This document shows positions 363 through 18,273 of a stretch of DNA of 20,000 nucleotides, in pieces. The translations under genes and the position numbers were made by a program. The notes beneath the pieces were generated by a model that saw only the letters and a list, made by a program, of their open reading frames with translations, searched no databases and was not told the origin of the DNA. Positions within the stretch are counted from its first letter, which is position 1. The number at the start of each line of letters is the position of its first letter. Source of the DNA: an uncultured virus (IMG/VR IMGVR_UViG_3300005588_000005) (lineage: Duplodnaviria; Heunggongvirae; Uroviricota; Caudoviricetes); the IMG/VR virus record IMGVR_UViG_3300005588_000005, one strand, 5' to 3'.

Positions 363-1592
363 TTAGTCCTGGTTGTTCTCGCGGTTGAACCGGGCCCAAA
401 GTTTCTTCATTTGAGGTGAGTTTGCGATGTCCGAAGGATTGTCGCTTTGCACCGGCGGAGCCTGCCTCGTGGACGTCCTTCCGCTGACTCCCGACGGCCG
501 GCGTCGACGGCTTTGCGACTGAATTTCCCGTGTTTTGCCGGTTTGGTTCGCAACTCGCGGCGTTGTCCCAACCTCGCCAAACACCACGTTCACAGCCCGC
601 TTTGCCAGCTGCGCAACGGAAATGTTTCGTTGCCCCTGCTTTTCCAGGGCGTCGTACATGCTGGCCATCTTGCTCAGAACCATTTGGCGGTTTGCCGTAT
701 GAAGGCCTCCGAGATCCTGGTTCACCGAACCGTTTTTGCCGACGACGCGACCGAAAGTGTTCTGATCCATCCCGTCGAGCGATTGGTGGAATTCGATTAA
801 AACGCGGTCAGTTTCCTGTTGCTTGCGAATCTCATCCTCCTGTTGCCGACGAGCCGCTTCACGCTCCCGTTCTTCGATGATCAGATTGTGCTGTTCCGCC
901 ATCATAATGTCGTCTTCTGAATAGTTTTCCTCCTTCATCTTCGCGATGTCGCGTTTCTTGAACTTCGGGGTATCGCTTTGCTCTGTCTGCTCAGGCTGTT
1001 GTTGCGGAGAGTTCTCCGGTCGGTATCCGGGCAAAAGCGGGTTGTTCGTCCGCGGCGCCGGTTGCTGGAATTGTTGGTAACCGGGTCCGCCGGCGGCTGT
1101 GAGGTTCTGGTCGTACATCCGACCAAACCGGTCCAACTCTTCTCGACTCGACAGGTCTTTGATGTCGTCTTCCGAAAGACCGTAGCTTTTCGCGAATTCA
1201 ATCGTGTCCGGATCCTCGTACCACTTGGCAGCATCCGGATCGTCATCGTCAAGTTCTTCGTCGTCAAACTCGTCGATCGAGGAACCCCGCTCGTCGTAGA
1301 AGTCCGATCCAGTGTCATCGCTAGCCGACCAACCGTCCTCGGGAGCGTAGTCCTTTTCGTCTCGGTCCCCGGTGTCGTTGGAGGCACTGGTACGGCGGAG
1401 AGGTTCATCGTCAAGGTCGTCGTCGCCTTCGTATTGTTCAGGCTGAGGAGCGGCCGACGGTCGTCGCGCGCCGGGCGGCGGATCCTGCGAACCTGGAAGT
1501 TTGCCGTTGGGTAGCGATGAAGCCCCATCGTCACCGAAGTCGGCTTTTGCGCGAGCGATTTGAGCGGGGGTAAGGCTGATTGATCGGGCCAT
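363..1592 (-). CDS. Putative capsid scaffolding protein
   Basis: 409 aa with a very acidic, disordered N-terminal half, a coiled coil (EEREREAARRQQEDEIRKQQE) and a basic C-terminal tail. It lies between portal and MCP. AGGA-type RBS upstream. Confidence 0.65.
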   Translation of the reverse strand: MARSISLTPAQIARAKADFGDDGASSLPNGKLPGSQDPPPGARRPSAAPQPEQYEGDDDLDDEPLRRTSASNDTGDRDEKDYAPEDGWSASDDTGSDFYDERGSSIDEFDDEELDDDDPDAAKWYEDPDTIEFAKSYGLSEDDIKDLSSREELDRFGRMYDQNLTAAGGPGYQQFQQPAPRTNNPLLPGYRPENSPQQQPEQTEQSDTPKFKKRDIAKMKEENYSEDDIMMAEQHNLIIEEREREAARRQQEDEIRKQQETDRVLIEFHQSLDGMDQNTFGRVVGKNGSVNQDLGGLHTANRQMVLSKMASMYDALEKQGQRNISVAQLAKRAVNVVFGEVGTTPRVANQTGKTREIQSQSRRRRPSGVSGRTSTRQAPPVQSDNPSDIANSPQMKKLWARFNRENNQD

Positions 1593-1659
1593 TTTCTGTT
1601 CCTTTTAGGAAAACAAGGGTTTTGAGTGCTGTTGTTGTAGGCAGGCGGTCATAAAAAAA

Positions 1660-2172
1660 TCAACGGCTTGGTTTCAGGCTCTTGCGTTTCTTCTTGTCCG
1701 CAACACGCCCTAAGATCTCGCAGGCGTCCCGGATGTCCTTCGCCGAAATTGCCTGTCCGCCGCCGTTCCGACTGTTCTGGTCGGTGAATTCCCGAGACTT
1801 CATGTACTCGGCTTTCGACCTCTCACTTCCGCAGACAACGGAATAGAAGTGGGTTTCGGGGTCCCGCCGGAATTCGATGTCCGTGAAGTTGTTGCGCTTG
1901 CGATGTTCCTCCATCTCCGCAAACTGGTGTTCGCCGAAGCCCATCGCGTCGCTAACAATCTCCGTCCGGCCGGCAACCTTCTTCGTCTTGATCTTCTGCG
2001 TCGGCCGGTTCGTCCGTCGCGCCCACACTCCCGGTTTCACCTCCAAGAACCCGTCCCGGGCTTTCATCGCCTGGTGGAAGTCCACGTAGATGATCGTCCC
2101 GTCGTCCATCTTGAACGGAATCCCGGTGGTGTTGGATGACTTCTTCTTTCGTTTGTTCTTGGATCTTCCCAT
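1660..2172 (-). CDS. Conserved-looking phage head-module protein (hypothetical)
   Basis: Part of ORF 1660..2253; likely start is ATG 2172 (MGRSKNK...). Protein-like sequence (IVSDAMGFGEHQ...IEFRRDP...KAEYMKSREFTDQN) between portal and scaffold. Confidence 0.6.
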   Translation of the reverse strand: MGRSKNKRKKKSSNTTGIPFKMDDGTIIYVDFHQAMKARDGFLEVKPGVWARRTNRPTQKIKTKKVAGRTEIVSDAMGFGEHQFAEMEEHRKRNNFTDIEFRRDPETHFYSVVCGSERSKAEYMKSREFTDQNSRNGGGQAISAKDIRDACEILGRVADKKKRKSLKPSR

Positions 2173-2667: not shown

Positions 2668-2962
2668 TTGAATACTCGAAGGAATAATTCTTCCATGGGA
2701 GAGGTTTTGGATCATCCCGGGCAGCCCCATGCTCTTTGTAGTGGATGAACGCTTGCACTAAGTTGATTCCATGACCGCATTTTGGGCAGATAATCCAGTC
2801 ACTTTCCGAAAACACATCGCTTTGCTTCACCAAGACTGACCAAGTGTGATCGCATTGCCAACGCATACAGCGGAGGGTTTCAGGTCTGACAGATTGATTC
2901 TTGGTAAGGAAGCATGGGATCAATGTCGCAACCATTGATTTGAACCACGATCGTCTTTTCAT
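2660..2962 (-). CDS. Small hypothetical protein with CPKC motif and twin-arginine-like N-terminus
   Basis: 100 aa; TGATG overlap with the portal stop; begins MKRRSWFKSMVATLIPCFL. Confidence 0.55.
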   Translation of the reverse strand: MKRRSWFKSMVATLIPCFLTKNQSVRPETLRCMRWQCDHTWSVLVKQSDVFSESDWIICPKCGHGINLVQAFIHYKEHGAARDDPKPLPWKNYSFEYSNE

Positions 2963-4929
2963 CAGGTCATTCCCCCAGGTGTTTGAGGACCGGCCGTCGC
3001 AGCTGCATTCATCATCTGCGATGACTGGGCCATCGGACTATTCTGTCCGGCAGAAACGTTCTCCCGGACATACCGGCGCGTGCCGTTGGGAGGCGACGAC
3101 GGAACCTTGGTCAAAGGTTGCAGTTCCATGTCATCGCCAGATCCGCCCATGAATTTGACCACATTCCGCAACTCAGGAAGGTTCATCAGTTCGGAGAACG
3201 TCTCGACCAAAGCAAACATGTCGACCATCCCTCCTTGCTGCTGAAGGTACGGCGCCAACGGCATGATGACTTGCTGGACGACGGTCGTAAGCTTTTGGAT
3301 CTTTTCTTCCGGACCCTCGTATCGCATCGAGTAAATGTCGACGTCGAAGTTGAAGTCAATGAAGTTCCCTTCCCGATCGCCAGGCTTCCATACTTCGGAA
3401 ACGGTAATGCTCGTCCCGGGAATCGGAATCTCCATCACAATTTCCTTGACCGAGTCTTGCCACAGCATCATGCCGAGGCAGCGAAACAGGCGGGAAGTCT
3501 TCTCAATCACCCGCTTGCCCATTTTGTCGACCTTCCGCGACGCGGCTCCGTGGATCAGCCTGTCCTGTCCGAGAGTCCCCGCTTGGGCGCCGAGTCCCAG
3601 TTGTGCGGAAAGGTTGCCGGCCATCCGGTCGAACAGTTCGATGCCGCCGATCATGAAACCGTGGGTCCCGGCGTCAACGCCGCCAAACGTCAATTGACCA
3701 ATCTCGTTCGGATCGTTCACGCAAACCGTTCCGCCGTCTTCTGTGATCGCAACGTTCTGGACGTCCTTCGCAGCGCCAGCGGTGTACGTCGTGACCGTCT
3801 TCTGGGCTCGAGCCTGTGTCGATTCCTTCCGCATCAGGTCGTTCACAAGCGTTTCCAGCAATTCCAAGTTCGCCGCCGGCGACGAAGGCATGATGTTTTC
3901 CGGAACATCGTGAAAGCCGAGAAGGTGGTATGGTCCAAGCTCGTCGCCCGTCCATTCCTCGACAGCAATCGGACCGGGTCCGGCCAGGGACATTTTCGTC
4001 CTGTCTTGGATGACGTACGTGTAAACGACCCCGTGCCGCGGAACCCAAAGATCGATCAGATCAATCATGTCCTCCAAGTCGTCTTGGTCATTCTCTTGTG
4101 ACCGACTCATTCCCTCGACACGATCTCGCTCGTCGTTCTGGGTCAACGTCGACGGCTGGTGATCTGACATCGCATCTTCGCCGAAAATGTCGATCGCCTC
4201 TTCCCACGACAATCGGTACATGTCGCCGGCGTACCGCACTTCCGACCACTTGTTCGCCTTCATGTCGTAAACGAAGTCGTCCAGAGCGATGTTCGAAGCA
4301 AACGGCCGACCAGGATCCATCCACAAATCTGTCTCGACCTGGACCATCCCAGCATTGGCCATGTGGGTTTTGATGATGCCAACACAGAAGTACGCGTCCA
4401 TGATCCACTGTTCCAGAGTCTCCGGAAGGTGGATTTCCTTCACAAGCGCGTTCAACGCACGCTGGAAGTGCTTGGAAAAGGCCTTGTATTGAGGGAATTC
4501 GGTCGACACCAGCGCCCGAGGCTTGTCCGACACAAGATTGATCTGAGCAGCTTCAACAGCCTGTTGTATCAGATTCAAATAGCGGTTCGGATGATTTTCG
4601 TCCTCGCCGTAGGAGGAACCGCCGTAAAGCTCCGTCAGACTGTGATTCATCTCACGGAATGGCTCGAGACTGCGGTACGATCGCTCAACCGATCGCATGA
4701 ACCGAGATTGATCGCCGTCGTACCGCAATCCGCCGCCGCCGCCAAACAGTTCTTCCAACCGGTCTTCGTCGGCAGGCGCTCGAGAGGCAAAAGGCCCTTC
4801 GCCGGTATAAACTCCCGGCCTGACTCGCAGCCGATCGGGCATGTACTCGCCATCCCTGACGTTTTCGTACATGGACTTTGGAGAGAAGTCGGCTTCCGAA
4901 TCGTCGTCTACAACCGGCATTGAATACAT
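2962..4929 (-). CDS. Phage portal protein
   Basis: 655 aa, downstream of terL and upstream of scaffold/MCP. Size, helical character and the Q/M/P-rich C-terminal tail fit P22-like portals. Confidence 0.8.
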   Translation of the reverse strand: MYSMPVVDDDSEADFSPKSMYENVRDGEYMPDRLRVRPGVYTGEGPFASRAPADEDRLEELFGGGGGLRYDGDQSRFMRSVERSYRSLEPFREMNHSLTELYGGSSYGEDENHPNRYLNLIQQAVEAAQINLVSDKPRALVSTEFPQYKAFSKHFQRALNALVKEIHLPETLEQWIMDAYFCVGIIKTHMANAGMVQVETDLWMDPGRPFASNIALDDFVYDMKANKWSEVRYAGDMYRLSWEEAIDIFGEDAMSDHQPSTLTQNDERDRVEGMSRSQENDQDDLEDMIDLIDLWVPRHGVVYTYVIQDRTKMSLAGPGPIAVEEWTGDELGPYHLLGFHDVPENIMPSSPAANLELLETLVNDLMRKESTQARAQKTVTTYTAGAAKDVQNVAITEDGGTVCVNDPNEIGQLTFGGVDAGTHGFMIGGIELFDRMAGNLSAQLGLGAQAGTLGQDRLIHGAASRKVDKMGKRVIEKTSRLFRCLGMMLWQDSVKEIVMEIPIPGTSITVSEVWKPGDREGNFIDFNFDVDIYSMRYEGPEEKIQKLTTVVQQVIMPLAPYLQQQGGMVDMFALVETFSELMNLPELRNVVKFMGGSGDDMELQPLTKVPSSPPNGTRRYVRENVSAGQNSPMAQSSQMMNAAATAGPQTPGGMT

Positions 4930-4938
4930 CTGGGATTC

Positions 4939-5310
4939 CTACTTTACGTCTGGGTCGTCGTCCTCCCCACACCAACACAAGATGCACGGCAAGGAAACGA
5001 TTGGTTTGTGGCATTCCGGGCAGTTGAACCGACTCATCAGCGACACCGATGCCGATGCCGGAAGACCGTTTCTCCTGCAAAACGAAACTGCTACGTTATC
5101 GCACGTCCACAGCATACGATTCAATCCAATAAATTCCCCCGGAGAAAGCCCACAAACACGGGCTTTATCCCTGATCGCCAAAGAATGGTACGACCAAAAG
5201 CCAATCACGCGACGCGCTGGGATGATTAGATGCCGCGCCAAATAGGGGTTCTGGACGTTGGAAATCCAGATACTCTTGACCGGTTTCCCGGACAGAAAGT
5301 ATTGGCTCAT
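4939..5310 (-). CDS. Hypothetical protein with C-terminal Zn finger (CPEC...PCILC)
   Basis: ATG 5310 (MSQYFLSG) overlaps the terL stop (ATGA). The extra N-terminal part of ORF 4939..5505 lies inside terL and is unlikely to be translated. Confidence 0.6.
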   Translation of the reverse strand: MSQYFLSGKPVKSIWISNVQNPYLARHLIIPARRVIGFWSYHSLAIRDKARVCGLSPGEFIGLNRMLWTCDNVAVSFCRRNGLPASASVSLMSRFNCPECHKPIVSLPCILCWCGEDDDPDVK

Positions 5311-7292
5311 CGTCTTCTCTTCAGCACACTGCCCACCCATCTGTCCCGCCTTTTGTTGAGTTCTGCTGCCCGATCCTCCTGACGGTACATGTCCACACGC
5401 TCCGCCATCGTCCCGCTGATTGACTGAGATTTGACCATCGCCTTTCCCTGCTCGTCCATAATAACCCCAACGTATTCGCTCGGACGATCTAGCAGTTGCT
5501 GACAATTCACCCCGAAAGCAATCACGCGGTCACCGTGGGCCTTCCCTTTGCTCGAATCATCCTTCGTCGTCAGACTTTGGGCGTGCTCAATCTTCCCGTT
5601 GATCATCACGTACTGCCGGAATTCCAACGCAAGTTTCTTGCACTTGACGATCGCTTCGGAAGCACGAACAGCCCGGGTCATCTCCGAAAACATGATCCCT
5701 TTCGAATAATCGTCCGTGTGGAAACCCAAGTCGGTCGTGACAGTCCGCTTCTTCTTCTTGAACGAATGACGGCGATAACAGTTCGGGTACTTCAGATCCT
5801 TGATCCGCTTGGTGAATGCACCGCCCTGCTGGCCGTTGGATTCCCACCCCAAATACGCACCGTAAAGCCACAGCGCTGCAGCAACAGAAAGGTCAGCAAA
5901 TTCCGACGGTTCGATCGTGTTCGCCGCATACCCCAAAATCTGCTCGTGGGTCGACAGGTCGGATCCGTACAACGTCGAATTGCTGGTGTGACTCCCGCCA
6001 AGACCGGATGAAATGTCAGCCGACAACGCGTACATCCCTTTCGGTGGTCGCCCCTGGACGTTCAGCGGAACCCAAAGATCGACCGGACCGCTCCGGATCT
6101 CCTGGAATTCGGCTTTCATTACCATCTCGCCATCCTCAACATGGCTGGTCACCGAGAAATTGCCGGTGTGGGTCGGGACGGCAATCGACTGGTGAACCGC
6201 CTTGATGAACTCGTTGCCAAACACCAAGAACGACGATCCGCCATAATCCCGGTCAAGCTCCTGAGCGATAGACTGCGGCGTCATCCCAGCGCGATCGCAC
6301 TCATGGTCGTACCATGGACTCCGCTGAATTCGCTCCCCGTCCTTGTTCTTCTCAAGATTGAATCCCCGCGATCGCAATCTCGAGAACAGGTCGAGCACTT
6401 CCTTTGTCGGTGGGTTGTAGTGCGACGGCAACGGATTATTCACAGGGTCGACCGCAACCGGCTTCCCCCGCTTCATCACGTACAAGCCGCGATTCCGCGT
6501 AACGTTCTGCTTCCAGTCGATGACGACCGGCACCATCGCCGACGGTTCGTGCATCACGTTGTAATATTCGTTGTGACAGCCGTTGACCGTCGACACGAAC
6601 ACTCGGCAGTTCGTTGAACCGTGACTCGAATTCAAAGCCTCCGTGTCTTCGCCCTTGTTGAAGAAGGCGAATTCGTCCATCACAGCGTAAGTCAGACGAC
6701 CGCCGCGGAAGATGTTGCCGGTCGCCGCGCCAGCAGCGATTGAGGACCCCGTCCACTTGTGTGCCCAAGTGTGATTGTTCCGATTCCGCGTCCAATCCCT
6801 GCCTTTGATCCCCACCATCCATTCGGGAAGGCAATCCAACTCGTAGTCAATCTTCCATCCCAGCGAGTCGGAGTCGTCCGGGTTGTCAGCCGCAAGCTCT
6901 GTCCGGGAGACAAGACCGACTTTCGCATCCTCATCATTGACGAATGAATTACAAGCAAAAAGCACCGCGATCCAGCTCATCCCCTCACCACGGCTTTTCT
7001 CTACCCCGATGTCCTCGTGACCAAGATGCTCATTGATCTTGCGAATCGCGTCAACTTGGTGGGGCCAGGGAATGAACGGAACCCGCTTGCTGTACTTCAC
7101 CCCGTCCCGAATCTTCGGCCGAGGCTCGTAAACCCAGCAGAACGTCGAGAAGAACCACAAGACGTCATCCTTGCACGCGGACAACGCCATGTCCCGGAAC
7201 TTCTTCGAAAACTCGCACTTCTTCAGGATGTCATTGCGGTAACCGAGATTGTCATCCGTATCCAGCGGCACACGCGAAAACCAATCCGTCAT
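5307..7292 (-). CDS. terL: Terminase large subunit
   Basis: 661 aa. Adenine-binding PWPHQ, Walker A-type EKSRGEGMSW, Walker B GGRLTYAVMDEFAF, coupling motif VSTVNG, and RNase H-like nuclease residues in SADISSG and HGDRVIA. Confidence 0.92.
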   Translation of the reverse strand: MTDWFSRVPLDTDDNLGYRNDILKKCEFSKKFRDMALSACKDDVLWFFSTFCWVYEPRPKIRDGVKYSKRVPFIPWPHQVDAIRKINEHLGHEDIGVEKSRGEGMSWIAVLFACNSFVNDEDAKVGLVSRTELAADNPDDSDSLGWKIDYELDCLPEWMVGIKGRDWTRNRNNHTWAHKWTGSSIAAGAATGNIFRGGRLTYAVMDEFAFFNKGEDTEALNSSHGSTNCRVFVSTVNGCHNEYYNVMHEPSAMVPVVIDWKQNVTRNRGLYVMKRGKPVAVDPVNNPLPSHYNPPTKEVLDLFSRLRSRGFNLEKNKDGERIQRSPWYDHECDRAGMTPQSIAQELDRDYGGSSFLVFGNEFIKAVHQSIAVPTHTGNFSVTSHVEDGEMVMKAEFQEIRSGPVDLWVPLNVQGRPPKGMYALSADISSGLGGSHTSNSTLYGSDLSTHEQILGYAANTIEPSEFADLSVAAALWLYGAYLGWESNGQQGGAFTKRIKDLKYPNCYRRHSFKKKKRTVTTDLGFHTDDYSKGIMFSEMTRAVRASEAIVKCKKLALEFRQYVMINGKIEHAQSLTTKDDSSKGKAHGDRVIAFGVNCQQLLDRPSEYVGVIMDEQGKAMVKSQSISGTMAERVDMYRQEDRAAELNKRRDRWVGSVLKRRR

Positions 7293-7308: not shown

Positions 7309-8061
7309 CTAAGATTGCAACATGACGTAGCTTGCAGGGTAAGTCGCTTCCATTCTCGTCGTAAATTCATCGTCGCTGGGACGCTTGTCTAGTGTGAAAA
7401 GACGACTCTTTGCAATGTGCAACGTTGCGTCGGCAATCGATTGTGGTGTCTGGAATGTGCTCAACGGGTCCGCAACCAGCCAATCATAACGACCAGCATC
7501 GGGAACACTTACCGCCGGTGAAACTTCAACAGTGACGCCAACGCGTTTATTGATCCAAGTTCTGGAAATTCCATTATGAAGAAACTCGACTTCAGTGTCG
7601 TGCATGAACAAAGGAAGCCTGGAAATCATCCATTCGAATTTCTGGCCAAGAGAATCCATGTCCTGAGCACAGTACGAAGATTCTTCGTTTCGACCAACCA
7701 AAAGAATACGCTTCAGATCGCTTGACCCAAGAGCGTATGCGTGCAACGCGACCATCAAAGCCAATTGCGTCGCGCCGTATTCCCGGTCGTACCAGAAAAC
7801 CACATCCTTCTTTCCGGCATTCAAGCAAATCTCACGAAGGTTCTCTTCCTGATTCTTCCGGCAAATGAACGGATTTTCTCTACCCGTACGTGGGTCAAAA
7901 ACCCATCCGAACAGATTGCTAAACGCGACAATGTCATCGCGAAACACACTCAGTAATCCATCGCCGTTGAAGTCAGACGTCGCCATGAACCAAGACCTGT
8001 ACACAAAGTTCAGCTGATGGTCAGTCGGAATGAATTTCGACACCAGATCGGATTGTGACAT
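7309..8061 (-). CDS. Degenerate paralog of the terminase ATPase domain
   Basis: 250 aa, colinear by eye with terL residues 1-240 (e.g. RDDIVAFSNLFGWVFDPR vs KDDVLWFFSTFCWVYEPR; DMDSLGQKFEWMISRLP vs DSDSLGWKIDYELDCLP). Walker A and B catalytic residues are substituted. Confidence 0.8.
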   Translation of the reverse strand: MSQSDLVSKFIPTDHQLNFVYRSWFMATSDFNGDGLLSVFRDDIVAFSNLFGWVFDPRTGRENPFICRKNQEENLREICLNAGKKDVVFWYDREYGATQLALMVALHAYALGSSDLKRILLVGRNEESSYCAQDMDSLGQKFEWMISRLPLFMHDTEVEFLHNGISRTWINKRVGVTVEVSPAVSVPDAGRYDWLVADPLSTFQTPQSIADATLHIAKSRLFTLDKRPSDDEFTTRMEATYPASYVMLQS

Positions 8062-9839: not shown

Positions 9840-10900
9840 GAATCCTCATACGAAAAATGCCGGGCGAACGTGAGCCTTCACCCGGCATACTGAGAAATTG
9901 CGAGCTCCCCAGAAAGAGGGCAGCACCGAAACGCCGCCACCAACCACAAATGGAAGATGCTCACGACTCCACGAATCATAGACCCACAAACACACCTTTT
10001 CAATCAAACAAAAGGCACCCCCCATCACCAAAACCAAAATGGGGCCCCCGAAAACATCCCAAAACACCACAGAATGACACGCCAAAACCCGGTTTCGCTA
10101 AATCTGTCTAAACGGGCTAACTTAGGTACCAGCAATCGCGAGCCGGCGATCGCGGGTCAAAACTGAAATCCGGATGGGTCCCTCTTTTCCCCTTAGACCC
10201 AAAAACACCTCAATCAGGCGTGTTCTCGCCAAACCAAGGACCAACGTGTCATCGATCCTGCACCACCTAAGGACGCATAAACAATGGAGTGCGACCCTAG
10301 CTCAAAATCGTGGCGAGGACACGCCAGGACGCTGCCGAGCGAGCCCGTGGGGAGGCAGGCGAACACGACCAGACACGCACATTTTAGCTCGTTCGCCTCA
10401 TCTGTCGCCGTTTCGGTTGCTTGTTGGCGGCGTTGTGGTGTCTGTCTGTCGGTGCTGTGGGTTGCTTGGTTGGTTGTCGTCGTTCGCGTCGTCCGATGGC
10501 TGTTGTGGTGGCCTGGTTGCGTGTTGTTGGTCTGTCCGATGTGGTCTTCGTCGTGCGGTTTCTGTTGTCGTTCGTCGTGTTGTCGTCTTCCGGTGGTTGT
10601 TGGTCTTTGGTTGGTCTTGTGGTTATTGGTCTTTGGGAGGGAGCATTGGTCGGAAAATCTGGTTTTCGGATGTCGATCTGTTGTGCGGGTTCGGTTGTTG
10701 ATCGGGGTCGGAGCGGTCGCCGACTGACGAATCTACTGACAACCATGTCAGTAGCTGAAACACGGGGTTTTTGGCGTTTTGAAAACGAGTTTGTGTCTCC
10801 GTCGTCGAATGGGGTCGATAAAAAGTTTGAGAAAATTCTGATTTTGTTTGTAACATTTCGGTGGTTTGTCCGCTTAATACATTGCGAGCTCGTTCTTACC
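9840..10900. other. Non-coding divergent region with strand-composition switch (candidate pac/origin/control region)
   Basis: The plus strand is C/A-rich up to ~10380 and strongly G/T-rich from ~10385 to ~10720. The region separates divergently transcribed gene blocks, and ORFs here are low-complexity. Confidence 0.5.
10733..10754. promoter_or_regulatory. Perfect 9-bp inverted repeat, operator-like
   Basis: CTACTGACA-ACCA-TGTCAGTAG, ~175 nt upstream of the first plus-strand gene. Confidence 0.45.
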
Positions 10901-10928
10901 CACCACACCAAAAACTGAGAGACTGACC
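10901..10928 (+). repeat. Repeated translation leader, copy 1
   Basis: CACCACACCAAAAACTGAGAGACTGACC immediately before ATG 10929; nearly identical to 12261-12285. Confidence 0.8.
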
Positions 10929-11423
10929 ATGTACTACGCAGTAGTGACGTTCGGCACAAAGCCGCAACAGACAGTATTCGGCGACCTGGAAAGAGCCAGA
11001 GTAGCCGCGGCGCGTGCCGTTGGCTGCGGTTCTTGTACCGATTCCCGTGTCTACGCATGTGAGACGCGACAACTTGCCGAGACGGCGAACATCGGTGCTG
11101 TCCGTGCCGGTGAGTCGATTGTTCACACAAAGATGCTGGTGGACGAGGCGAAAACGGCTGATGTGCCGATTACGATTGATGGAAAGCCTGCGACAATCGC
11201 TGAAGTTGAAGCGTATGCAGAGACGCACGGTTGCGAACCGCTGCCCGATGATTTCCAGCCTGCCGAACTTGGCGATTCGATCCACGTCACCGAAAAGAAC
11301 GTGACCGGCTTTATTGTCGAAATCGATCCTTGTGAGTGGTGCTACGTCATTCGTACCGCTTCCGGCTTGGTTGTCGTTGGCTGGAATGAACCGCACACCG
11401 TAATTGACGGATCGCAAGCGTAG
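10929..11423 (+). CDS. Hypothetical early-type protein
   Basis: 164 aa ORF, ATG preceded by the repeated leader; first gene of the plus-strand block. Confidence 0.7.
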   Translation: MYYAVVTFGTKPQQTVFGDLERARVAAARAVGCGSCTDSRVYACETRQLAETANIGAVRAGESIVHTKMLVDEAKTADVPITIDGKPATIAEVEAYAETHGCEPLPDDFQPAELGDSIHVTEKNVTGFIVEIDPCEWCYVIRTASGLVVVGWNEPHTVIDGSQA

Positions 11424-11542
11424 CGGCTTGTCGGTCTGACTCGGCCGACGTGACCATGCCCCGGTTGCGTCGGTCCTTTCAGGCTTACAACGTCGTCAAG
11501 CTTGGTTTTGTTTCACTCCTATCCGCTACTATGGAGTCTGCT

Positions 11543-11875
11543 ATGTCTCGATCTTCTGAAGGGTTTTCCGACCCGTTTTCTCGGTCTTTCACGCTCGGAC
11601 AGGTGATGGCCATCCGTGAATGCGTCAATCGTGTGCTCGACAAGGCCAATCTTGCATCGCCAGAACGCCGCGAATTGTACGAGGCGATGCGATTGTCCAA
11701 TGACATCCTCGAACGTCACGGCGCACGCAAGGTGATGGACTTCGGCGGGGTGGAATTGGTCAATGAAGAGAATCATCGCCCAAACCCCTGCCCTCGTTGC
11801 TTTGGTCAACTGCCGGGACGGCTCGTCGATGGCGTCTGCGACCAGTGCGACCACGTTGTAAATGAGGTGGCCTGA
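11543..11875 (+). CDS. Hypothetical protein with C-terminal CxxC...CxxC
   Basis: ATG 11543 with GGAG RBS; CPRC...CDQC; TGATG coupling to the next gene. Confidence 0.65.
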   Translation: MSRSSEGFSDPFSRSFTLGQVMAIRECVNRVLDKANLASPERRELYEAMRLSNDILERHGARKVMDFGGVELVNEENHRPNPCPRCFGQLPGRLVDGVCDQCDHVVNEVA

Positions 11876-12201
11876 TGAACTGCCCAGATTGCAATGCGTT
11901 CGCCGTCGATCCCAAAACAGGCGTTTGCGGGGATTGTGGTGCACTTCGCTTTACCGACCGCACGTTTATGCGGTTGACGTTATTGTCGGCCAAGATGGAG
12001 AAAATGGCTGCGATTGCCGGACGTCGCTGGTCAACCGACCGGGATCTGTCTGACAAAGAGCGTGCCGAGTGGCAGCACTTGAACGCGATCACCGAAGCAG
12101 AATGCGAGCGGGAGGACGAACGACACCGGCGCCGGGATGCGTCTGCTGGTCTGTCCGGTTGCCTCCCGCTGTTCGATCAGCCAAGCGATGGCGCGTGGTG
12201 A
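11875..12201 (+). CDS. Hypothetical protein with N-terminal zinc ribbon
   Basis: MNCPDC...CGDCG; GAGG RBS; coupled start. Confidence 0.65.
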   Translation: MNCPDCNAFAVDPKTGVCGDCGALRFTDRTFMRLTLLSAKMEKMAAIAGRRWSTDRDLSDKERAEWQHLNAITEAECEREDERHRRRDASAGLSGCLPLFDQPSDGAW

Positions 12202-12260
12202 CGTCTCGCGGCTGAGGGCTCGGTAATTGCCGAGCCCGATCCCCTGCGACGTTGCAGGAT

Positions 12261-12285
12261 CACCACACCACACTGAGAGACTGAC
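12261..12285 (+). repeat. Repeated translation leader, copy 2
   Basis: CACCACACCACACTGAGAGACTGAC immediately before ATG 12286. Confidence 0.8.
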
Positions 12286-12516
12286 ATGAGCAGCTACGAA
12301 GACGGAAAGCTTGCCGCGCTGAATCACCCTGGTTGCGCGGCCGAGGCAATCCGCAAACTAAAGACTGACCCTGATTTCTGGCAGGGATTCCACGACAACC
12401 GGCCGAAATCGGCCTTTTCTCGTCCACTGATCGATCCAACACGCCCTGGTGGCTGGTGTTTTGTCGACACATCCGTTCCCACTGTCCTCAAACAAGGAAA
12501 CTCCAATGACTCCTGA
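12286..12516 (+). CDS. Small hypothetical protein
   Basis: 76 aa, preceded by the repeated leader. Confidence 0.55.
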   Translation: MSSYEDGKLAALNHPGCAAEAIRKLKTDPDFWQGFHDNRPKSAFSRPLIDPTRPGGWCFVDTSVPTVLKQGNSNDS

Positions 12517-12823
12517 AAAGTACATCGACATCCGAAAAGGTTTGGTTCAAGCACGAGACGAAGCACGCCGCCGTTGGTTTGCTGCACGAAATGTCAGAGA
12601 CAACTTAAACCAGACGCCAGTACGTGAAACCAAGTTATTAATGACTTTTCACAATGGAAGCGCATGGATAACGTCGGAGTTCAGATCTCCGCTAATCCCT
12701 GATTACATCGTGGAATTGTTTGTCAGTCACGCCAAGAAGTTGGCTGATGAAGCACAACGCGTCCTGGACCTGCACGACAGTCAATTCCGCAATGGAGGAT
12801 CGGACGATGAAACCGATGATTAA
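12506..12823 (+). CDS. Hypothetical protein
   Basis: ATG 12506 (MTPEKYIDIRK) with AAGGAA RBS. Confidence 0.6.
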   Translation: MTPEKYIDIRKGLVQARDEARRRWFAARNVRDNLNQTPVRETKLLMTFHNGSAWITSEFRSPLIPDYIVELFVSHAKKLADEAQRVLDLHDSQFRNGGSDDETDD

Positions 12824-13142
12824 GCAACTGATTGCTGCGTTAGAACCTTTCGGTGGGAAGGCGTTCAAGCACATGTACACGGTGTTTCGGTCGGACTACG
12901 ACGAATCGCCAGAACCACCTGGGGGAATGTTCAATCAGGTTTACACGTCACTCGACAAGGCAAAAGAGAGTTGCCGCGCTGATTTGATTGACCATCGCAT
13001 AAACCTGGAACTTGACGGTCCTGGTGCAGAGTGGGCCGTATGCAATAGCCGGAACGGTTGTTGGGTTCTTGATGATGAAGAATCTGGAATCGTCTTCCAC
13101 GTTCTTGAATGCAACATCGACGACGAGGCATGGCTTAAATGA
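12807..13142 (+). CDS. Hypothetical protein
   Basis: ATG 12807 (MKPMIKQL) with GGAGG RBS; overlaps the upstream stop. Confidence 0.65.
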   Translation: MKPMIKQLIAALEPFGGKAFKHMYTVFRSDYDESPEPPGGMFNQVYTSLDKAKESCRADLIDHRINLELDGPGAEWAVCNSRNGCWVLDDEESGIVFHVLECNIDDEAWLK

Positions 13143-13273
13143 TTGATATGAAAACCATCGAGATGATCAAGCGATCCACCGGGCAACCATGTGATTCGCT
13201 GGAATACAACGCGATCGTAAAGAAAATCAACGCGGCAACTCTTTTTTGCCTTGTCGAGTGCCGCAAAGGATAA
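13139..13273 (+). CDS. Possible 44-aa small protein
   Basis: Manual translation MIDMKTIEMIKRSTGQPCDSLEYNAIVKKINAATLFCLVECRKG; ATGA overlap with the upstream stop. Confidence 0.3.
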   Translation: MIDMKTIEMIKRSTGQPCDSLEYNAIVKKINAATLFCLVECRKG

Positions 13274-13388
13274 GTGGGTCCGACTCGCATCACCCTGGTT
13301 GTCATTTTTCCCAACCTGACAACAGCCGAATGTTTCGGAAACAGGGTGATGCCTCTCGGCTCCACTATCACTACTAAAGAGGAATCAG

Positions 13389-13613
13389 ATGATTCAATGC
13401 TATTCAAAAAGTTCTAGGAACGGCCTGCAAGCCTTCTCAGACCGGAAATCGGCAATCACAAAAGAAGATTATTCCGGGATGAATGTGGCGCTGATCTTCG
13501 GTGACACTACCGACGAACTCGAACGGAGGTTGCACAAGTACAACGGCCCAGAAACCATCGTCGAACGCATTGGTTTTTCTCCGACCGAGCAACACAAACC
13601 GTCGGACAACTAA
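13389..13613 (+). CDS. Small hypothetical protein
   Basis: 74 aa; GAGGAA RBS; ends 6 nt before the methyltransferase start. Confidence 0.5.
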   Translation: MIQCYSKSSRNGLQAFSDRKSAITKEDYSGMNVALIFGDTTDELERRLHKYNGPETIVERIGFSPTEQHKPSDN

Positions 13614-13619
13614 ACGAAG

Positions 13620-15248
13620 ATGATGGACACAATTGACTTGTTTTGCGGCGCTGGCGGTACATCCATCGGCGCCCATCTGACCGGCGGGGTAAAGATCAAG
13701 CTTGCACTCAATCATTGGCATCGTGCCATCGAGACGCATTCACTGAACTTTCAAAACGTTCGGCATATCAACAGCCGGATTGAAGACGCCAGCCCATCGG
13801 AAGCAGATAGCTGTGATTTACTGTTTGCCTCGCCAGAGTGCATCCATTTCAGCAAAGCACGAGGGGCGAGACCAACATCCGACCAACAACGCGTCGGTGC
13901 CAACCATGTTTTGCCATGGATTGAACACCATCGGCCGGAATACGTTGTGATTGAGAACGTTACCGAATTCTTGGATTGGGGACCTGTCCACCGAATTGGT
14001 GAACGCGCTGGTCGACCGATCATCGCCCGGAAAGGCCAGTATTTCCGGAAATGGTCGGCCTCAATCAAGAATCTAGGCTACACCCTCGATTGGCGAACAC
14101 TGAACGCGGCTGACTTTGGAGCTGCCACGTCACGCAATCGCTTGTTTGTTATCGCTCGGCGAGGTCGACGAAAACCACGCTGGCCAAAACCGTCACATGC
14201 AAACGATGGCGGTGGGTTGCCGTTGTTCGCCGATGGCGGTGGGTTGCCGGCATGGCGCGGAGCAATCGAGATCATCGACTGGTCGATACCGTTGCCGTCT
14301 GTATTCGCTCGTACGCGGCCGTTGGCAGACAAGACGTTGGCCAGGATCCAAAAGGGATTAGACCGGTACGTCGCCCCGTTCGTTGTCACGCTGCGAAACC
14401 ATGGCGAGGCTTCCGACCCTGATCGCCCTATCGGCACGATCACAGCGGGAGGACTTCATCACGGCGTTACACTGCCGTTTGTCACAAAGTACAACGGAAA
14501 CACCGCCCAGGGCGACTTTCGTAATCATCCGATGGATGAGGCATTGCGGACACTCGACACTTCCAACCGGTTTGGAGTGGTTGCGCCATTCATCGCAACG
14601 GTCAACCACGGATATTCTGGTGGTAGTCGTACGCGGTCTGTGGATTCTCATTTGCCGACGATCACCACACGTCGCGGCGAAGCGATTGCAGCCCCGTTCA
14701 TCCTATCCGCTGGTGGCTGCGAAATCACGCCACGAGACGGAGGACGACCGACCCCGACGATCCTGACGCGGCAGGGGCAGGCGATCGCCGTTCCGATCAT
14801 CATGTCGTCACAGTACGGCGGCGGAGTGAAGGATCCAGGCACCTCACCAGTACCGACGATCACAACAAAGACTGGTTCGCAGATTGCCGTTCCGTTCATC
14901 ACAACGTTCAACGGGACTTTTCAGGCGGGCGCCGGTCCAGAAGGATCACCATTGCCGACGATCACGACCGTGGAACGGCACGCGGCTACGTTGGCGGCGT
15001 TGGGCATTCCATCGCTTCCGACTCCACGATCGGCAGCAGAGAGACGTTTACAGGATCGCATGAAGGAACTCGGCGTCTTGGAAATTGGTTTTCGGATGTT
15101 GTCGAACGAAGAATTGGCAAACGCCCAAGGGTTTCCAGCCGACTATCGCTTCACTGGTCCGAAAAAGGATGTGACGAAAATGATAGGCAATTCGGTATCA
15201 CCACCGGTCGCCAAAGCCATTACCGAATCAATCTTGGGGACAGTATGA
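13620..15248 (+). CDS. DNA cytosine-5 methyltransferase (orphan, phage type)
   Basis: Motif I DLFCGAGG, IV ASPECIHFS, VI IENV, VIII LNAADFGAATSRNRLF, IX RML..ELANAQGFP, X IGNSVSPP. Confidence 0.95.
   Translation: MMDTIDLFCGAGGTSIGAHLTGGVKIKLALNHWHRAIETHSLNFQNVRHINSRIEDASPSEADSCDLLFASPECIHFSKARGARPTSDQQRVGANHVLPWIEHHRPEYVVIENVTEFLDWGPVHRIGERAGRPIIARKGQYFRKWSASIKNLGYTLDWRTLNAADFGAATSRNRLFVIARRGRRKPRWPKPSHANDGGGLPLFADGGGLPAWRGAIEIIDWSIPLPSVFARTRPLADKTLARIQKGLDRYVAPFVVTLRNHGEASDPDRPIGTITAGGLHHGVTLPFVTKYNGNTAQGDFRNHPMDEALRTLDTSNRFGVVAPFIATVNHGYSGGSRTRSVDSHLPTITTRRGEAIAAPFILSAGGCEITPRDGGRPTPTILTRQGQAIAVPIIMSSQYGGGVKDPGTSPVPTITTKTGSQIAVPFITTFNGTFQAGAGPEGSPLPTITTVERHAATLAALGIPSLPTPRSAAERRLQDRMKELGVLEIGFRMLSNEELANAQGFPADYRFTGPKKDVTKMIGNSVSPPVAKAITESILGTV
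14204..14249 (+). repeat. 19-bp direct repeat with 27-nt period inside the MTase
   Basis: CGATGGCGGTGGGTTGCCG at 14204-14222 and 14231-14249, giving DGGGLP-LFA-DGGGLP. Confidence 0.85.
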
Positions 15249-15637
15249 GAATCGGAAGACTGACCGTCCGTTGGTACGTTGAACCAACACCGCAATTAGC
15301 GATCCACTGGAACCACATCCCACCGCCAACGTATCGTTACGCCGAGCGACACTACGTCATGCTTGGCTGGCTTTTCCTTTGGCGCCGTTCGTTGTGGATC
15401 GGGTGGCGCGATAAGAGCCACCAACGCACTGACATGTTCACTTGCGTCTGGTGCGGAATCATGGCAGACATCGCGCCGCCTGATGGATCACTCGAACATT
15501 CGGTTTGCCCTGATTGCTGTGTCAAGCATCTCGACGGGCACGAATGGACGTATTGTCGCGATGAGCGGCAAACTGTGTGTGAATACTGCGGGACGCCGGA
15601 TCTAGATTCTGATCCGTACGACCACTTCATCCCTTGA
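15245..15637 (+). CDS. Cys-rich hypothetical protein
   Basis: 130 aa; ATGA overlap with the MTase stop; CVWC, CPDCC, CEYC motifs. Confidence 0.6.
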   Translation: MRIGRLTVRWYVEPTPQLAIHWNHIPPPTYRYAERHYVMLGWLFLWRRSLWIGWRDKSHQRTDMFTCVWCGIMADIAPPDGSLEHSVCPDCCVKHLDGHEWTYCRDERQTVCEYCGTPDLDSDPYDHFIP

Positions 15638-15670
15638 GAACCATTCCACAACAACCAAAAGAGAAGAAAG

Positions 15671-15910
15671 ATGAAAATGAATGACCTGAACGGAAAGTTT
15701 GAAGACTACGTCGAGAAAACAGAGCCAGAAACTGTTGCTGCATTCCTTAATCCGAGTCATCCGATGTTTAAGCCGTTTCTTCAAACCGTGTTTAATGCTG
15801 GTGCTGCTTCAATGCTTTCCTTACTTACCAAAGGAGTACCACCAGAAGATATTAAAAAAGAGATCATGTCACACGCTGACAGTATTGAAGAAACGTTCAA
15901 GGGTCACTAA
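15671..15910 (+). CDS. Small hypothetical protein
   Basis: 79 aa ORF, last gene before the terminator. Confidence 0.65.
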   Translation: MKMNDLNGKFEDYVEKTEPETVAAFLNPSHPMFKPFLQTVFNAGAASMLSLLTKGVPPEDIKKEIMSHADSIEETFKGH

Positions 15911-16000
15911 CCGGCCCCGCGATCGTTCTCTCAGTCGATCGCTAAGTGTTGTGGTGACACGGGCCAGCGTCCACCGTTTCGGCGGTGGGCGTTTTTTTGT
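15911..16000 (+). ncRNA. Candidate c4-like antisense RNA
   Basis: Closing stem GGCCC(15913-17)/GGGCC(15961-65) encloses hairpin GCGATCG-TTCTCTCAGT-CGATCGC and hairpin GTGTT-GTGGT-GACAC, followed by a terminator. Both hairpins are complementary to the repeated leaders. Confidence 0.5.
15967..15999 (+). terminator. Rho-independent terminator of the plus-strand block
   Basis: GCGTCCACCG-TTTCGG-CGGTGGGCGT followed by a T run. Confidence 0.85.
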
Positions 16001-16008
16001 ATAGGCGC

Positions 16009-16044
16009 AAAAAAAGAACCGGCCTGCTGTGTCAGACCGGTTCT
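16009..16044 (-). terminator. Rho-independent terminator of the convergent minus-strand block
   Basis: AGAACCGG...CCGGTTCT stem preceded on the plus strand by an A run (T run on the minus strand). Confidence 0.8.
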
Positions 16045-16092
16045 GTCTCTAGGAGTTTACCTCAGGTGAGGTGCTCGAATTATAGCAATGGC

Positions 16093-16455
16093 TTAGCTCA
16101 ATGCTACTCCATCGTTTGAAGCAATGCGCCAAACGTACGCGGTACCCTTCTTGATCGACCGCAAGGTGATCTCATCGCCCGCGTCGGCCAGCGTCATCAC
16201 CGTGTTGCCGGTCTGGTTGATACCCGTCGCGGCCGTCACCGCAACATCACCGCCGCCGTCGGTTTGAAATCCAAGCGTAATCTGTAAACCGGCTTTTTCC
16301 GGATCGCTTAGCGTACGCGTTTCGCCAGAGGCGCCGGAAACGAGATTGACCACACCGCCCCAACGCTGGGGCGAGGCAATGTTTTTGCCGTCGCCCGGAT
16401 CGTCAATCTGGAAGTCGGCGTCGGCCATTTGCTCCGGTGCATTGTGTCCTGACAT
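16093..16455 (-). CDS. Beta-rich virion-like protein (possible head decoration protein)
   Basis: ATG 16455 with CAGGAG RBS; 120 aa, rich in G/T/A/D (ETRTLSDP, TDGGGDVAVT, DAGDEITL, WRIASNDG), a composition typical of virion proteins. Confidence 0.5.
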   Translation of the reverse strand: MSGHNAPEQMADADFQIDDPGDGKNIASPQRWGGVVNLVSGASGETRTLSDPEKAGLQITLGFQTDGGGDVAVTAATGINQTGNTVMTLADAGDEITLRSIKKGTAYVWRIASNDGVALS

Positions 16456-16541: not shown

Positions 16542-16811
16542 TCACGCTTCGGAGCCCACCACATCGCCAGGGCGAAGCACAGCACCATGATCAACCACAC
16601 TAGGGCGAATGGATTGATCAGGTACAGGATCGTCGTCTGGAACCATTCCATCATCTTCATTCCCCTCAAGTTCAGAACGTATTATCCGATGGTGATCAGA
16701 CGCCTTGATCCCAACTCGTACCCGATTCCCCTTCACGCCGAGGACAATGAACTCAATGTCTTGTCCAACGACTTGAATCCCTTCACCTGCTTTCCGTGAC
16801 AGTACCAACAT
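16542..16811 (-). CDS. csrA: Carbon storage regulator (CsrA/RsmA family) homolog
   Basis: MLVLSRKAGEGIQV...IEFIVLGVKGNRVRVGIKA...IIRSEL matches the CsrA consensus, including the conserved Arg of the C-terminal R-x-E motif; C-terminal extension; GGAG RBS. Confidence 0.9.
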   Translation of the reverse strand: MLVLSRKAGEGIQVVGQDIEFIVLGVKGNRVRVGIKASDHHRIIRSELEGNEDDGMVPDDDPVPDQSIRPSVVDHGAVLRPGDVVGSEA

Positions 16812-17607: not shown

Positions 17608-18273
17608 TTACTTGGTCCAGTCGTCGTCGTCATTGGCGAAGGCGTCGGGCAGTGTACCGTTATCCAACGCGTGCAAATACGTGTTGGTGATGCTGATATT
17701 GCAGTGTCCTGCAGCGTCGCGGACGGCGGCGGCAGAGTGGCCGATATTGAGCATGTGAGAGCAGAACGAATGTCGGCCAGAGTGCGGGCTTAGTTGCTTG
17801 CATCGTTCTTCACCGAGACACCGTATCGCGTTCATGAATCGACGGTACATCTTCTTGCGTTCGACGATCTTGGTTTGGTCGCGCTGGTACGGGTGCATGA
17901 TGAAGTAGGCCGTCGGATTGTCGTTCGTCTGTAACATCCGGTAGTTCCAGAAGTCTTCGAGGTCGAACTTGGTCCCGTGGTCCCACCACAGTGGAATTTT
18001 GCGTGGACGTGGGTTCGGGCCTTTCGTCGCTTCCTTCCGTACCTGGACATACGGGCGTTCGCCGGCAAAGTGAAAGTCTCGCAATTGGGAGTGTTGAATC
18101 TCCTTGCATCGCATCCCGCAGCATGTCGCCAGGCGGAAAACCGCGAGGTTCCGAAAATGGCTCTCGGAGTGGACACCGGTGGTCGACGTCCGCTTAGCTC
18201 TGAGGTCGTCCACCACCTTGAGGATTTCCGGAAGCAGGAAAACACGCGTCTGAAGTTCGATCAGGCTATTCAT
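17608..18273 (-). CDS. Tyrosine recombinase, catalytic domain only
   Basis: RNLAVFRLATCCGMRCKEI (R), TKG (K), PHSGRHSF (HxxR), AGHCNISITNTYLH (H, Y); 221 aa. Confidence 0.92.
   Translation of the reverse strand: MNSLIELQTRVFLLPEILKVVDDLRAKRTSTTGVHSESHFRNLAVFRLATCCGMRCKEIQHSQLRDFHFAGERPYVQVRKEATKGPNPRPRKIPLWWDHGTKFDLEDFWNYRMLQTNDNPTAYFIMHPYQRDQTKIVERKKMYRRFMNAIRCLGEERCKQLSPHSGRHSFCSHMLNIGHSAAAVRDAAGHCNISITNTYLHALDNGTLPDAFANDDDDWTK

Follow-up and report, generated by a model that had tools for sequence, protein, structure and literature searches.

Does the short structured stretch that closes a gene block in an uncultured tailed phage give rise to an RNA that pairs with the leaders of genes in that same block, or does its complementarity to them have another origin? 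The window considered here, that is, the whole stretch of 20,000 nucleotides that was analysed, is part of a phage genome of ~72 kb and is found in two sequencing runs, both of them marine-sediment DNA metagenomes, with no RNA run listed. An earlier note on this DNA had described a three-way junction whose two hairpins are antisense to repeated early-gene leaders, and had likened it to the c4 RNA of phages P1 and P7, with the suggestion that it may shut off or time the plus-strand genes. The block in question occupies ~9957-15910 on the plus strand and comprises a C5 DNA methylase (13620-15248) and otherwise orphan genes, and the label "early genes" is an assumption. The window also carries, on the minus strand, an SU10-type portal (2962-4929), the large terminase (5307-7292) and a second minus-strand block with a CsrA-like RNA-binding regulator (16542-16811; Pfam CsrA, 4e-15), 600 nt from the structured stretch, and an integrase-family gene (17608-18273). 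By its terminase, the phage falls in a large family with contigs of up to ~65-73 kb, the closest member being 66% identical. Among terminase-related loci from species-representative genomes, 14 of 27 lie in bins that we take to be Planctomycetota or a subgroup thereof, some of the name-to-phylum assignments being presumed, and the closest such locus (63% identity) is among these Planctomycetota-bin loci.

Some of these genes are of interest in their own right. Beside the terminase, a 250-aa protein (7309-8061, minus strand) matches the N-terminal part of large terminases at 26-28% identity, a resemblance seen in 128 of 171 related loci; by this similarity it is a paralogue of the terminase ATPase region. 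Several relatives of the terminase (P0025, P0038, P0060 and P0067) are ~1000 aa long with a LAGLIDADG homing-endonuclease domain (PF14528), which suggests inteins within this terminase family. The C5 methylase gene is unusually long (542 aa), with 99-nt-spaced repeats (33 aa) at 14646-14968 (families D3, D5 and D15).

The first step is to establish what lies at the end of the block. The final open reading frame of the block (15671-15910, 79 aa, an orphan) ends with TAA at 15908-15910, 2 nt ahead of a Y-shaped three-way junction at 15913-15965 on the plus strand; the coordinates and sequences given in the earlier note for this element and for the leaders all proved correct when checked on the letters of the window, and RNAfold returns exactly the three-way junction that had been proposed between the last plus-strand stop codon and the terminator. 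A closing stem, GGCCC/GGGCC (15913-15917 / 15961-15965), encloses two hairpins. Hairpin 1 (15919-15942) has a 7-bp stem (GCGATCG, 15919-15925 / CGATCGC, 15936-15942) and displays the 10-nt loop TTCTCTCAGT at 15926-15935 (also written UUCUCUCAGU), while hairpin 2 (15946-15960; GTGTT-GTGGT-GACAC) is built of a weak 5-bp stem and a 5-nt loop. Abutting the Y fold and beginning 56 nt past the stop codon is the intrinsic terminator of the plus-strand block (15966-16000), with a hairpin at 15966-15993 (12-bp stem, 4-nt loop) and a T7 tail. Together, element and terminator (96 nt) fold at -43.7 kcal/mol (z -4.34), a stability reached by 0 of 200 shuffled sequences in RNAfold. Taken by itself, the Y part folds at -22.5 kcal/mol (z -2.38; 3 of 200 shuffles as stable) and its opposite strand, equally stable, at -22.2 kcal/mol (z -3.12), so that folding does not tell which strand is used. 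When the element is placed in 341 nt of context, the minimum-energy fold preserves hairpin 1 and the terminator but pairs the closing stem and hairpin 2 differently; the centroid retains the full Y.

Position speaks more clearly about the strand. A convergent intrinsic terminator of the minus-strand genes (16008-16044, minus strand) stops short of the element, and minus-strand transcription of the element is therefore not expected. A sigma-70 scan, which may not suit this host, detected no promoter of the element's own, and ARAGORN found no tRNA-like gene or fold at the element. With regard to the letters of hairpin 1, the idea of a HIP1-like palindrome was set aside, as CGATCG is enriched only mildly in the window (23 observed against 13.9 expected). 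Separately, the exact 10-mer CGATCGCGGG occurs three times, at 6365-6374 (minus), 10147-10156 (plus) and 15916-15925 (minus), one copy lying in a conserved non-coding island and another making up the element's 5′ arm; if a single mismatch is tolerated, its five occurrences against 3.1 expected are not above chance.

The second step concerns the complementarity itself. As had been claimed for the loop of hairpin 1, box B′ (15927-15935) is an exact complement of ACTGAGAGA, a sequence with just three exact matches in the window: two on the plus strand, at 10914 and 12272, and one on the minus strand, at 15927. The complement in box B′ falls wholly within the loop. The claim for hairpin 2 holds equally: box A′ (GTGTTGTGGTG, 15946-15956) complements CACCACACCAC at 10 of 11 positions, and CACCACACCA occurs exactly at 10901 and 12261 and with one mismatch at 15947 (minus). 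At both leaders the two boxes are adjacent, in antiparallel order and over the ribosome-binding zone. The best predicted target, leader cassette 2 (12260-12285), reads TCACCACACCAC-ACTGAGAGA-CTGAC and then ATG at 12286, with box A at 12261-12271 and box B, which includes a weak Shine-Dalgarno-like GAGAG, at 12272-12280; it precedes a putative target gene of 76 aa (12286-12516) of unknown function and without a family. Leader cassette 1 (10900-10928), with weaker predicted pairing, reads CCACCACACCA-AAA-ACTGAGAGA-CTGACC and then ATG at 10929; the putative target gene that follows (10929-11423, 164 aa, function unknown) is, given its 21 relatives at E<=0.001, a real gene by sequence comparison. 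The GAGAG in box B is the only Shine-Dalgarno-like stretch of either gene. The two leaders have CACCACACCA..ACTGAGAGACTGAC.ATG in common (~24 of 27 nt) though the downstream genes are unrelated, and a near-identical 24-nt leader on two unrelated genes fits control by a common factor. Both target sets lie upstream on the element's strand with no strong terminator between them and the element, and we infer that targets and element share one transcript.

Two qualifications apply to this picture. The weak third site that had been proposed upstream of ATG 15671 (15646-15665, plus strand; 8 + 6 nt of complementarity) is present in letters, as CCACAACA at 15646-53 and AGAGAA at 15660-65, but not in energies, since no net pairing is predicted there (ddG -0.5 and 0.0) and its net cofold gain is zero. 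In addition, CA-rich leaders recur in the block (before 9957, 10929, 12286, 13620 and 15671), as do GT-rich repeats (10420-10700; family D1, which includes 15934-15956), and the match between A and A′ is consequently less informative than its length suggests.

The region around the first cassette has further features. The ~1 kb from 9957 to 10900 is CA-rich in one half (9957-10100) and, in the other (10420-10700), GT-rich and full of repeats; compared with positions 530-2010 (minus strand) of the related locus L175, the islands GGGCTAACTTA and ATCGCGGGTCAAAAC and the layout are conserved, with no flanking accessory gene in common. The open reading frames 9957-10166 and 10174-10701 are probably not genes, and possible roles for the segment are those of an origin of replication, of a large leader and of a non-coding RNA. 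At 10734-10814 (~80 nt) lies the palindrome CTACTGACA-ACCA-TGTCAGTAG, covered at ~3x the surrounding depth in both runs and found in contigs with differing flanks, which looks like a regulatory module common to several co-occurring phages. The exact 10-mer TTGCGAGCTC, at 9898-9907 and 10882-10891 and thus 47-58 nt upstream of the starts at 9957 and 10929, may be a promoter or operator element, and a sigma-70-like match is present at 10827-10856. Farther downstream, a 53-nt inverted repeat (12946-12998 / 13211-13263; 87% complementary, arms 212 nt apart) spans the open reading frames 12720-13142 and 13139-13273.

Third, would the predicted pairing stand out from what any such sequence could do? 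The 86-nt element was cofolded with the 60-nt start regions of the 31 translation starts of the window, and the net gain was -9.5 kcal/mol at 12286, first of the 31, and -5.9 kcal/mol at 10929, the fourth. A sliding 60-nt scan across the whole window puts three plus-strand sites (-17.3, -15.3 and -14.8) above the leader (-14.3), and 11 of 60 shuffled Y sequences reach -9.5 with leader 12286, a null that is lenient to the shuffles since they lose the Y's own structure; a naive duplex scan that ignores accessibility is dominated by GC stems and uninformative. The energies thus permit pairing without singling out the element and its leaders. For leader 12286, the best antisense local alignment on the whole strand is the element itself, with a score of 13.7 reached by 0 of 200 shuffles (mean 9.77, sd 0.92, maximum 12.7). 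Leader 10929 by itself is not significant (score 9.1, reached by 170 of 200 shuffles), and among the 31 leaders that of gene 2660-2962 scores higher still (14.5), at an irrelevant site.

These figures bear directly on the reading that an ordinary extra stem-loop before an intrinsic terminator merely happens to complement a leader, with neither common origin nor pairing function. The better, irrelevant match of leader 2660-2962 is in keeping with it, as are net pairing energies that fall in the range of shuffled sequences and the fact that the site was picked from a very large scan. The earlier note's idea of counting both boxes against a null gave a divided answer. At equal strictness (9 exact, with 10 or more of 11 adjacent; target gap 0-3, partner gap 0-15), 40 first-order Markov simulations yield 0.93 two-box inverted pairs per 20 kb, so that about one is expected in a random stretch of this length, and the real window holds four: the element's, one genuine long inverted repeat and two irrelevant pairs, the last of which again speak for coincidence. 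As a configuration before a terminator, however, the match is rare. In the 60 nt before 500 predicted terminators, drawn from the window and ~190 related loci and compared with same-strand leaders up to 8 kb upstream, this element alone gives a two-box match (9 exact, with 10 or more of 11), 1 of 500, and the reversed control gives 0 of 500; at the next looser setting there are 2 of 500 before real terminators and 1 of 500 in the control. Leader complements of at least 9 nt are as common before terminators (36 of 500) as in the reversed control (37 of 500), and the related phages have no general tendency to carry them there. The two-box configuration is rare, a few per thousand terminators; raw complementarity is not. 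For coincidence to suffice, the target would also have to fall on a ribosome-binding zone, and its partner in the loop of the sole structured non-coding segment that closes that operon, which is just the configuration whose frequency was measured directly. We regard coincidence as an unlikely account, one still to be taken seriously.

Fourth comes the search for relatives. We fetched 187 terminase-related loci and searched 198 loci for the block and its boxes: none of the 13 plus-strand block open reading frames has a relative in the 198, and the leader boxes are absent from all of them. A covariance model built from the single sequence gave no convincing homologue in 161 related loci (best non-self E values 0.047 and 0.19), the flanking proteins of 130 and 79 aa are orphans with no relative among 5.8 billion clustered proteins, and blastn against the phage GenBank collection gave no match. 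Pattern scans of IMG/VR for the two loops and for the two leader boxes returned 12 and 2 matches, near a rough chance estimate. Among these, L014 is the same phage and not an independent relative, and L001 and L013 are gene leaders of unrelated contigs with no proteins in common; for this phage IMG/VR contains identical fragments only, the nearest record (G001) being an identical 4.9-kb fragment without the element. The element is identical between two metagenome strains, with no variant in the contigs of both DNA runs. The gene block thus appears, by sequence comparison, to be unique to this phage among the loci and databases searched.

What the search did reveal is variation at a leader. A variant contig from one run (X1) parts from the window between 12259 and 12260, precisely where cassette 2 begins, and continues with a different CA-rich leader; the boundary of the cassette is hence a recombination joint, and gene 12286 with its leader a strain-variable cassette. 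In the nearest relative, L175, a duplicated leader cassette of its own, different in sequence, likewise stands ahead of two successive small genes (~620-540 and 215-145, minus strand; AAGTGACGYGATGTCACTT ... TGGAGAC ... ATG). Both observations lend themselves to the reading that the ~25-nt leader cassette is the boundary of a mobile module and the element a third copy, inverted, interrupted and left behind by recombination, whose complementarity goes unused; the Y fold and terminator would then be a 3′-end structure only, serving termination and protection from 3′ exonucleases. The reverse complement of 15923-15957, minus a 10-nt insert, agrees with leader 2 at ~22 of 25 positions, against 24 of 27 between leaders 1 and 2, and the symmetry of the fold between strands points the same way. 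Such a relic would nevertheless be an inverted copy with no minus-strand gene after it, and its history leaves unexplained why box B′ should be framed exactly by a perfect 7-bp palindromic stem with the box in the loop. We hold a mere relic to be unlikely, if by no means negligible. Nor are relic and function mutually exclusive, since an inverted leader copy on the same transcript could still pair.

The recurrence of the cassette also invites an explanation without RNA–RNA pairing, in which CACCACACC...ACTGAGAGA is recognised by a protein, be it a translational repressor acting on RNA, as T4 RegA does, or a DNA-binding regulator, with the inverted copy as a third site for looping or titration, for example. 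Three copies of both boxes would suit such a protein, as would a 10-bp insert in the third copy that amounts to about one helical turn and the proximity of the CsrA-like gene. The spacing of the boxes (0, 3 and 10 nt), however, is a poor fit to a rigid DNA-binding protein, the GGA motif of CsrA-type proteins is absent, by eye, from boxes and loops, and no candidate repressor was identified. We judge a protein site quite improbable.

Fifth, how close is the likeness to c4? In the P1 record, c4 lies at 48343-48419 and icd at 48470, with targets a1/b1 (7 + 8 nt) and then a2/b2, b2 falling 11-18 nt before icd, at its ribosome-binding site. Its sequence and Rfam alignment place the b′ complement in the loop of the second hairpin and a′ 3′ of it in the junction, with a long closing stem around both. 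In a published account, P1 c4 is described as an RNA of three stem-loops that is processed by RNase P to ~77 nt and whose b′ segment occludes the ribosome-binding site (PMC5320573). The element resembles this design in several respects: a closing stem surrounds two hairpins, as in P1/P7 c4; the complement of the ribosome-binding-site box sits in a ~10-nt loop and that of the upstream box 3′ of it; and the boxes are short, 7 + 8 nt in P1 and 11 + 9 nt here. The order 5′-b′..a′-3′ in the P1 RNA against 5′-a..b-3′ in its target is the same logic as that of the element, in which stem-enclosed hairpins, a loop facing the ribosome-binding region and a second segment facing the upstream box are found in antiparallel arrangement. 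As in P1, two target sets would lie upon the RNA's own transcript, and the spacing of the boxes is variable.

The differences are no less instructive. Whereas c4 lies 5′ of the genes it regulates, between its target sets, and is excised by RNase P, the element is found 3′ of every target, 3.6-5 kb downstream of them, abuts the operon terminator and shows no tRNA-like feature to ARAGORN. Its two target sets precede two different genes, unlike those of c4, and its A′ is half buried in a weak hairpin, whereas a′ in c4 is a junction strand. The Rfam comparison for C4 and c4-2 that the earlier note had pointed to came out negative: no family is found in the whole window at gathering score, and neither RF01695 nor RF03163 appears at E<=10 in 15600-16300, where there is noise only, while in a positive control of equal length P1 c4 is detected at 68.8 bits (E 3e-13) by RF01695 and c4-a1b1 (RF03163) at 51 bits. 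Lack of a model match, a 3′ position fused to the terminator and lack of a tRNA-like feature together mean that the element is not a member of the C4 family. What stands of the c4-like proposal is the architecture of the fold and the antiparallel match of its two boxes to the ribosome-binding zone; family membership does not stand, and the RNA lies beyond its targets, not between them. By analogy, the element may work like c4 without belonging to it.

Two further systems offer parallels. The CI RNA of satellite phage P4, in the same Rfam clan as C4, pairs its seqB with seqA and seqC and acts by premature transcription termination; like the element as proposed, it is an operon-derived, processed RNA that pairs with two repeated targets in its own operon, but the window matches none of the clan's models. 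Bacterial small RNAs derived from 3′ untranslated regions share the intrinsic terminator of their mRNA and usually use a single-stranded seed against targets in other operons. The element, which follows a stop codon and runs directly into an intrinsic terminator with its U7 tail, likewise has its terminator in common with the upstream mRNA, but differs in that no 5′ end, processing site or promoter can be defined for it.

In our estimate the element has a probability of roughly 0.35 of being a functional anti-leader RNA, whether it works in cis or in trans. Starting from the fold, the complementarity and the positions described above, transcription, processing, pairing and an effect on translation would have to follow. 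Pairing would begin between the 10-nt loop of hairpin 1 and ACUGAGAGA, a box that includes a weak Shine-Dalgarno-like stretch and is followed, 5-6 nt farther on, by the start codons at 10929 and 12286. The weak hairpin 2 would then open, allowing pairing to spread to the adjoining upstream CA-box, and the resulting interrupted duplex of 20-25 nt would mask the ribosome-binding zone and reduce translation of both cassette genes. Such an RNA could act in cis, within the same long transcript, or in trans, as a 3′-end fragment that retains the terminator hairpin and U-tail. As the element is made only once transcription reaches the end of the block, the proposed outcome is delayed negative feedback. 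The broader proposition, that in a phage of a Planctomycetota-associated family a c4-like antisense RNA with two sites arose independently, placed at the operon's 3′ end, fused to the terminator and outside the C4 family, strikes us as doubtful, albeit a live prospect.

If the element is not real as a regulator, it serves as a caution, for chance alone should yield a striking two-box complementarity about once in every 20 kb, and comparative or experimental support is needed before such a match is believed. If the anti-leader RNA is real, completion of the block would feed back on translation of the genes that have the 24-nt leader in common, in a phage lineage and host phylum in which, to our knowledge, there has been essentially no study of regulation by RNA. 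The c4 design, with a loop over the ribosome-binding site and a specificity box, would then have been invented a second time, independently, and in a different wiring that puts the regulator at the end of the operon. Finally, the anti-leader may have been born by inverted duplication of the leader cassette, and the element would thereby show a possible origin of such regulators, namely the inverted copying of a mobile leader cassette.
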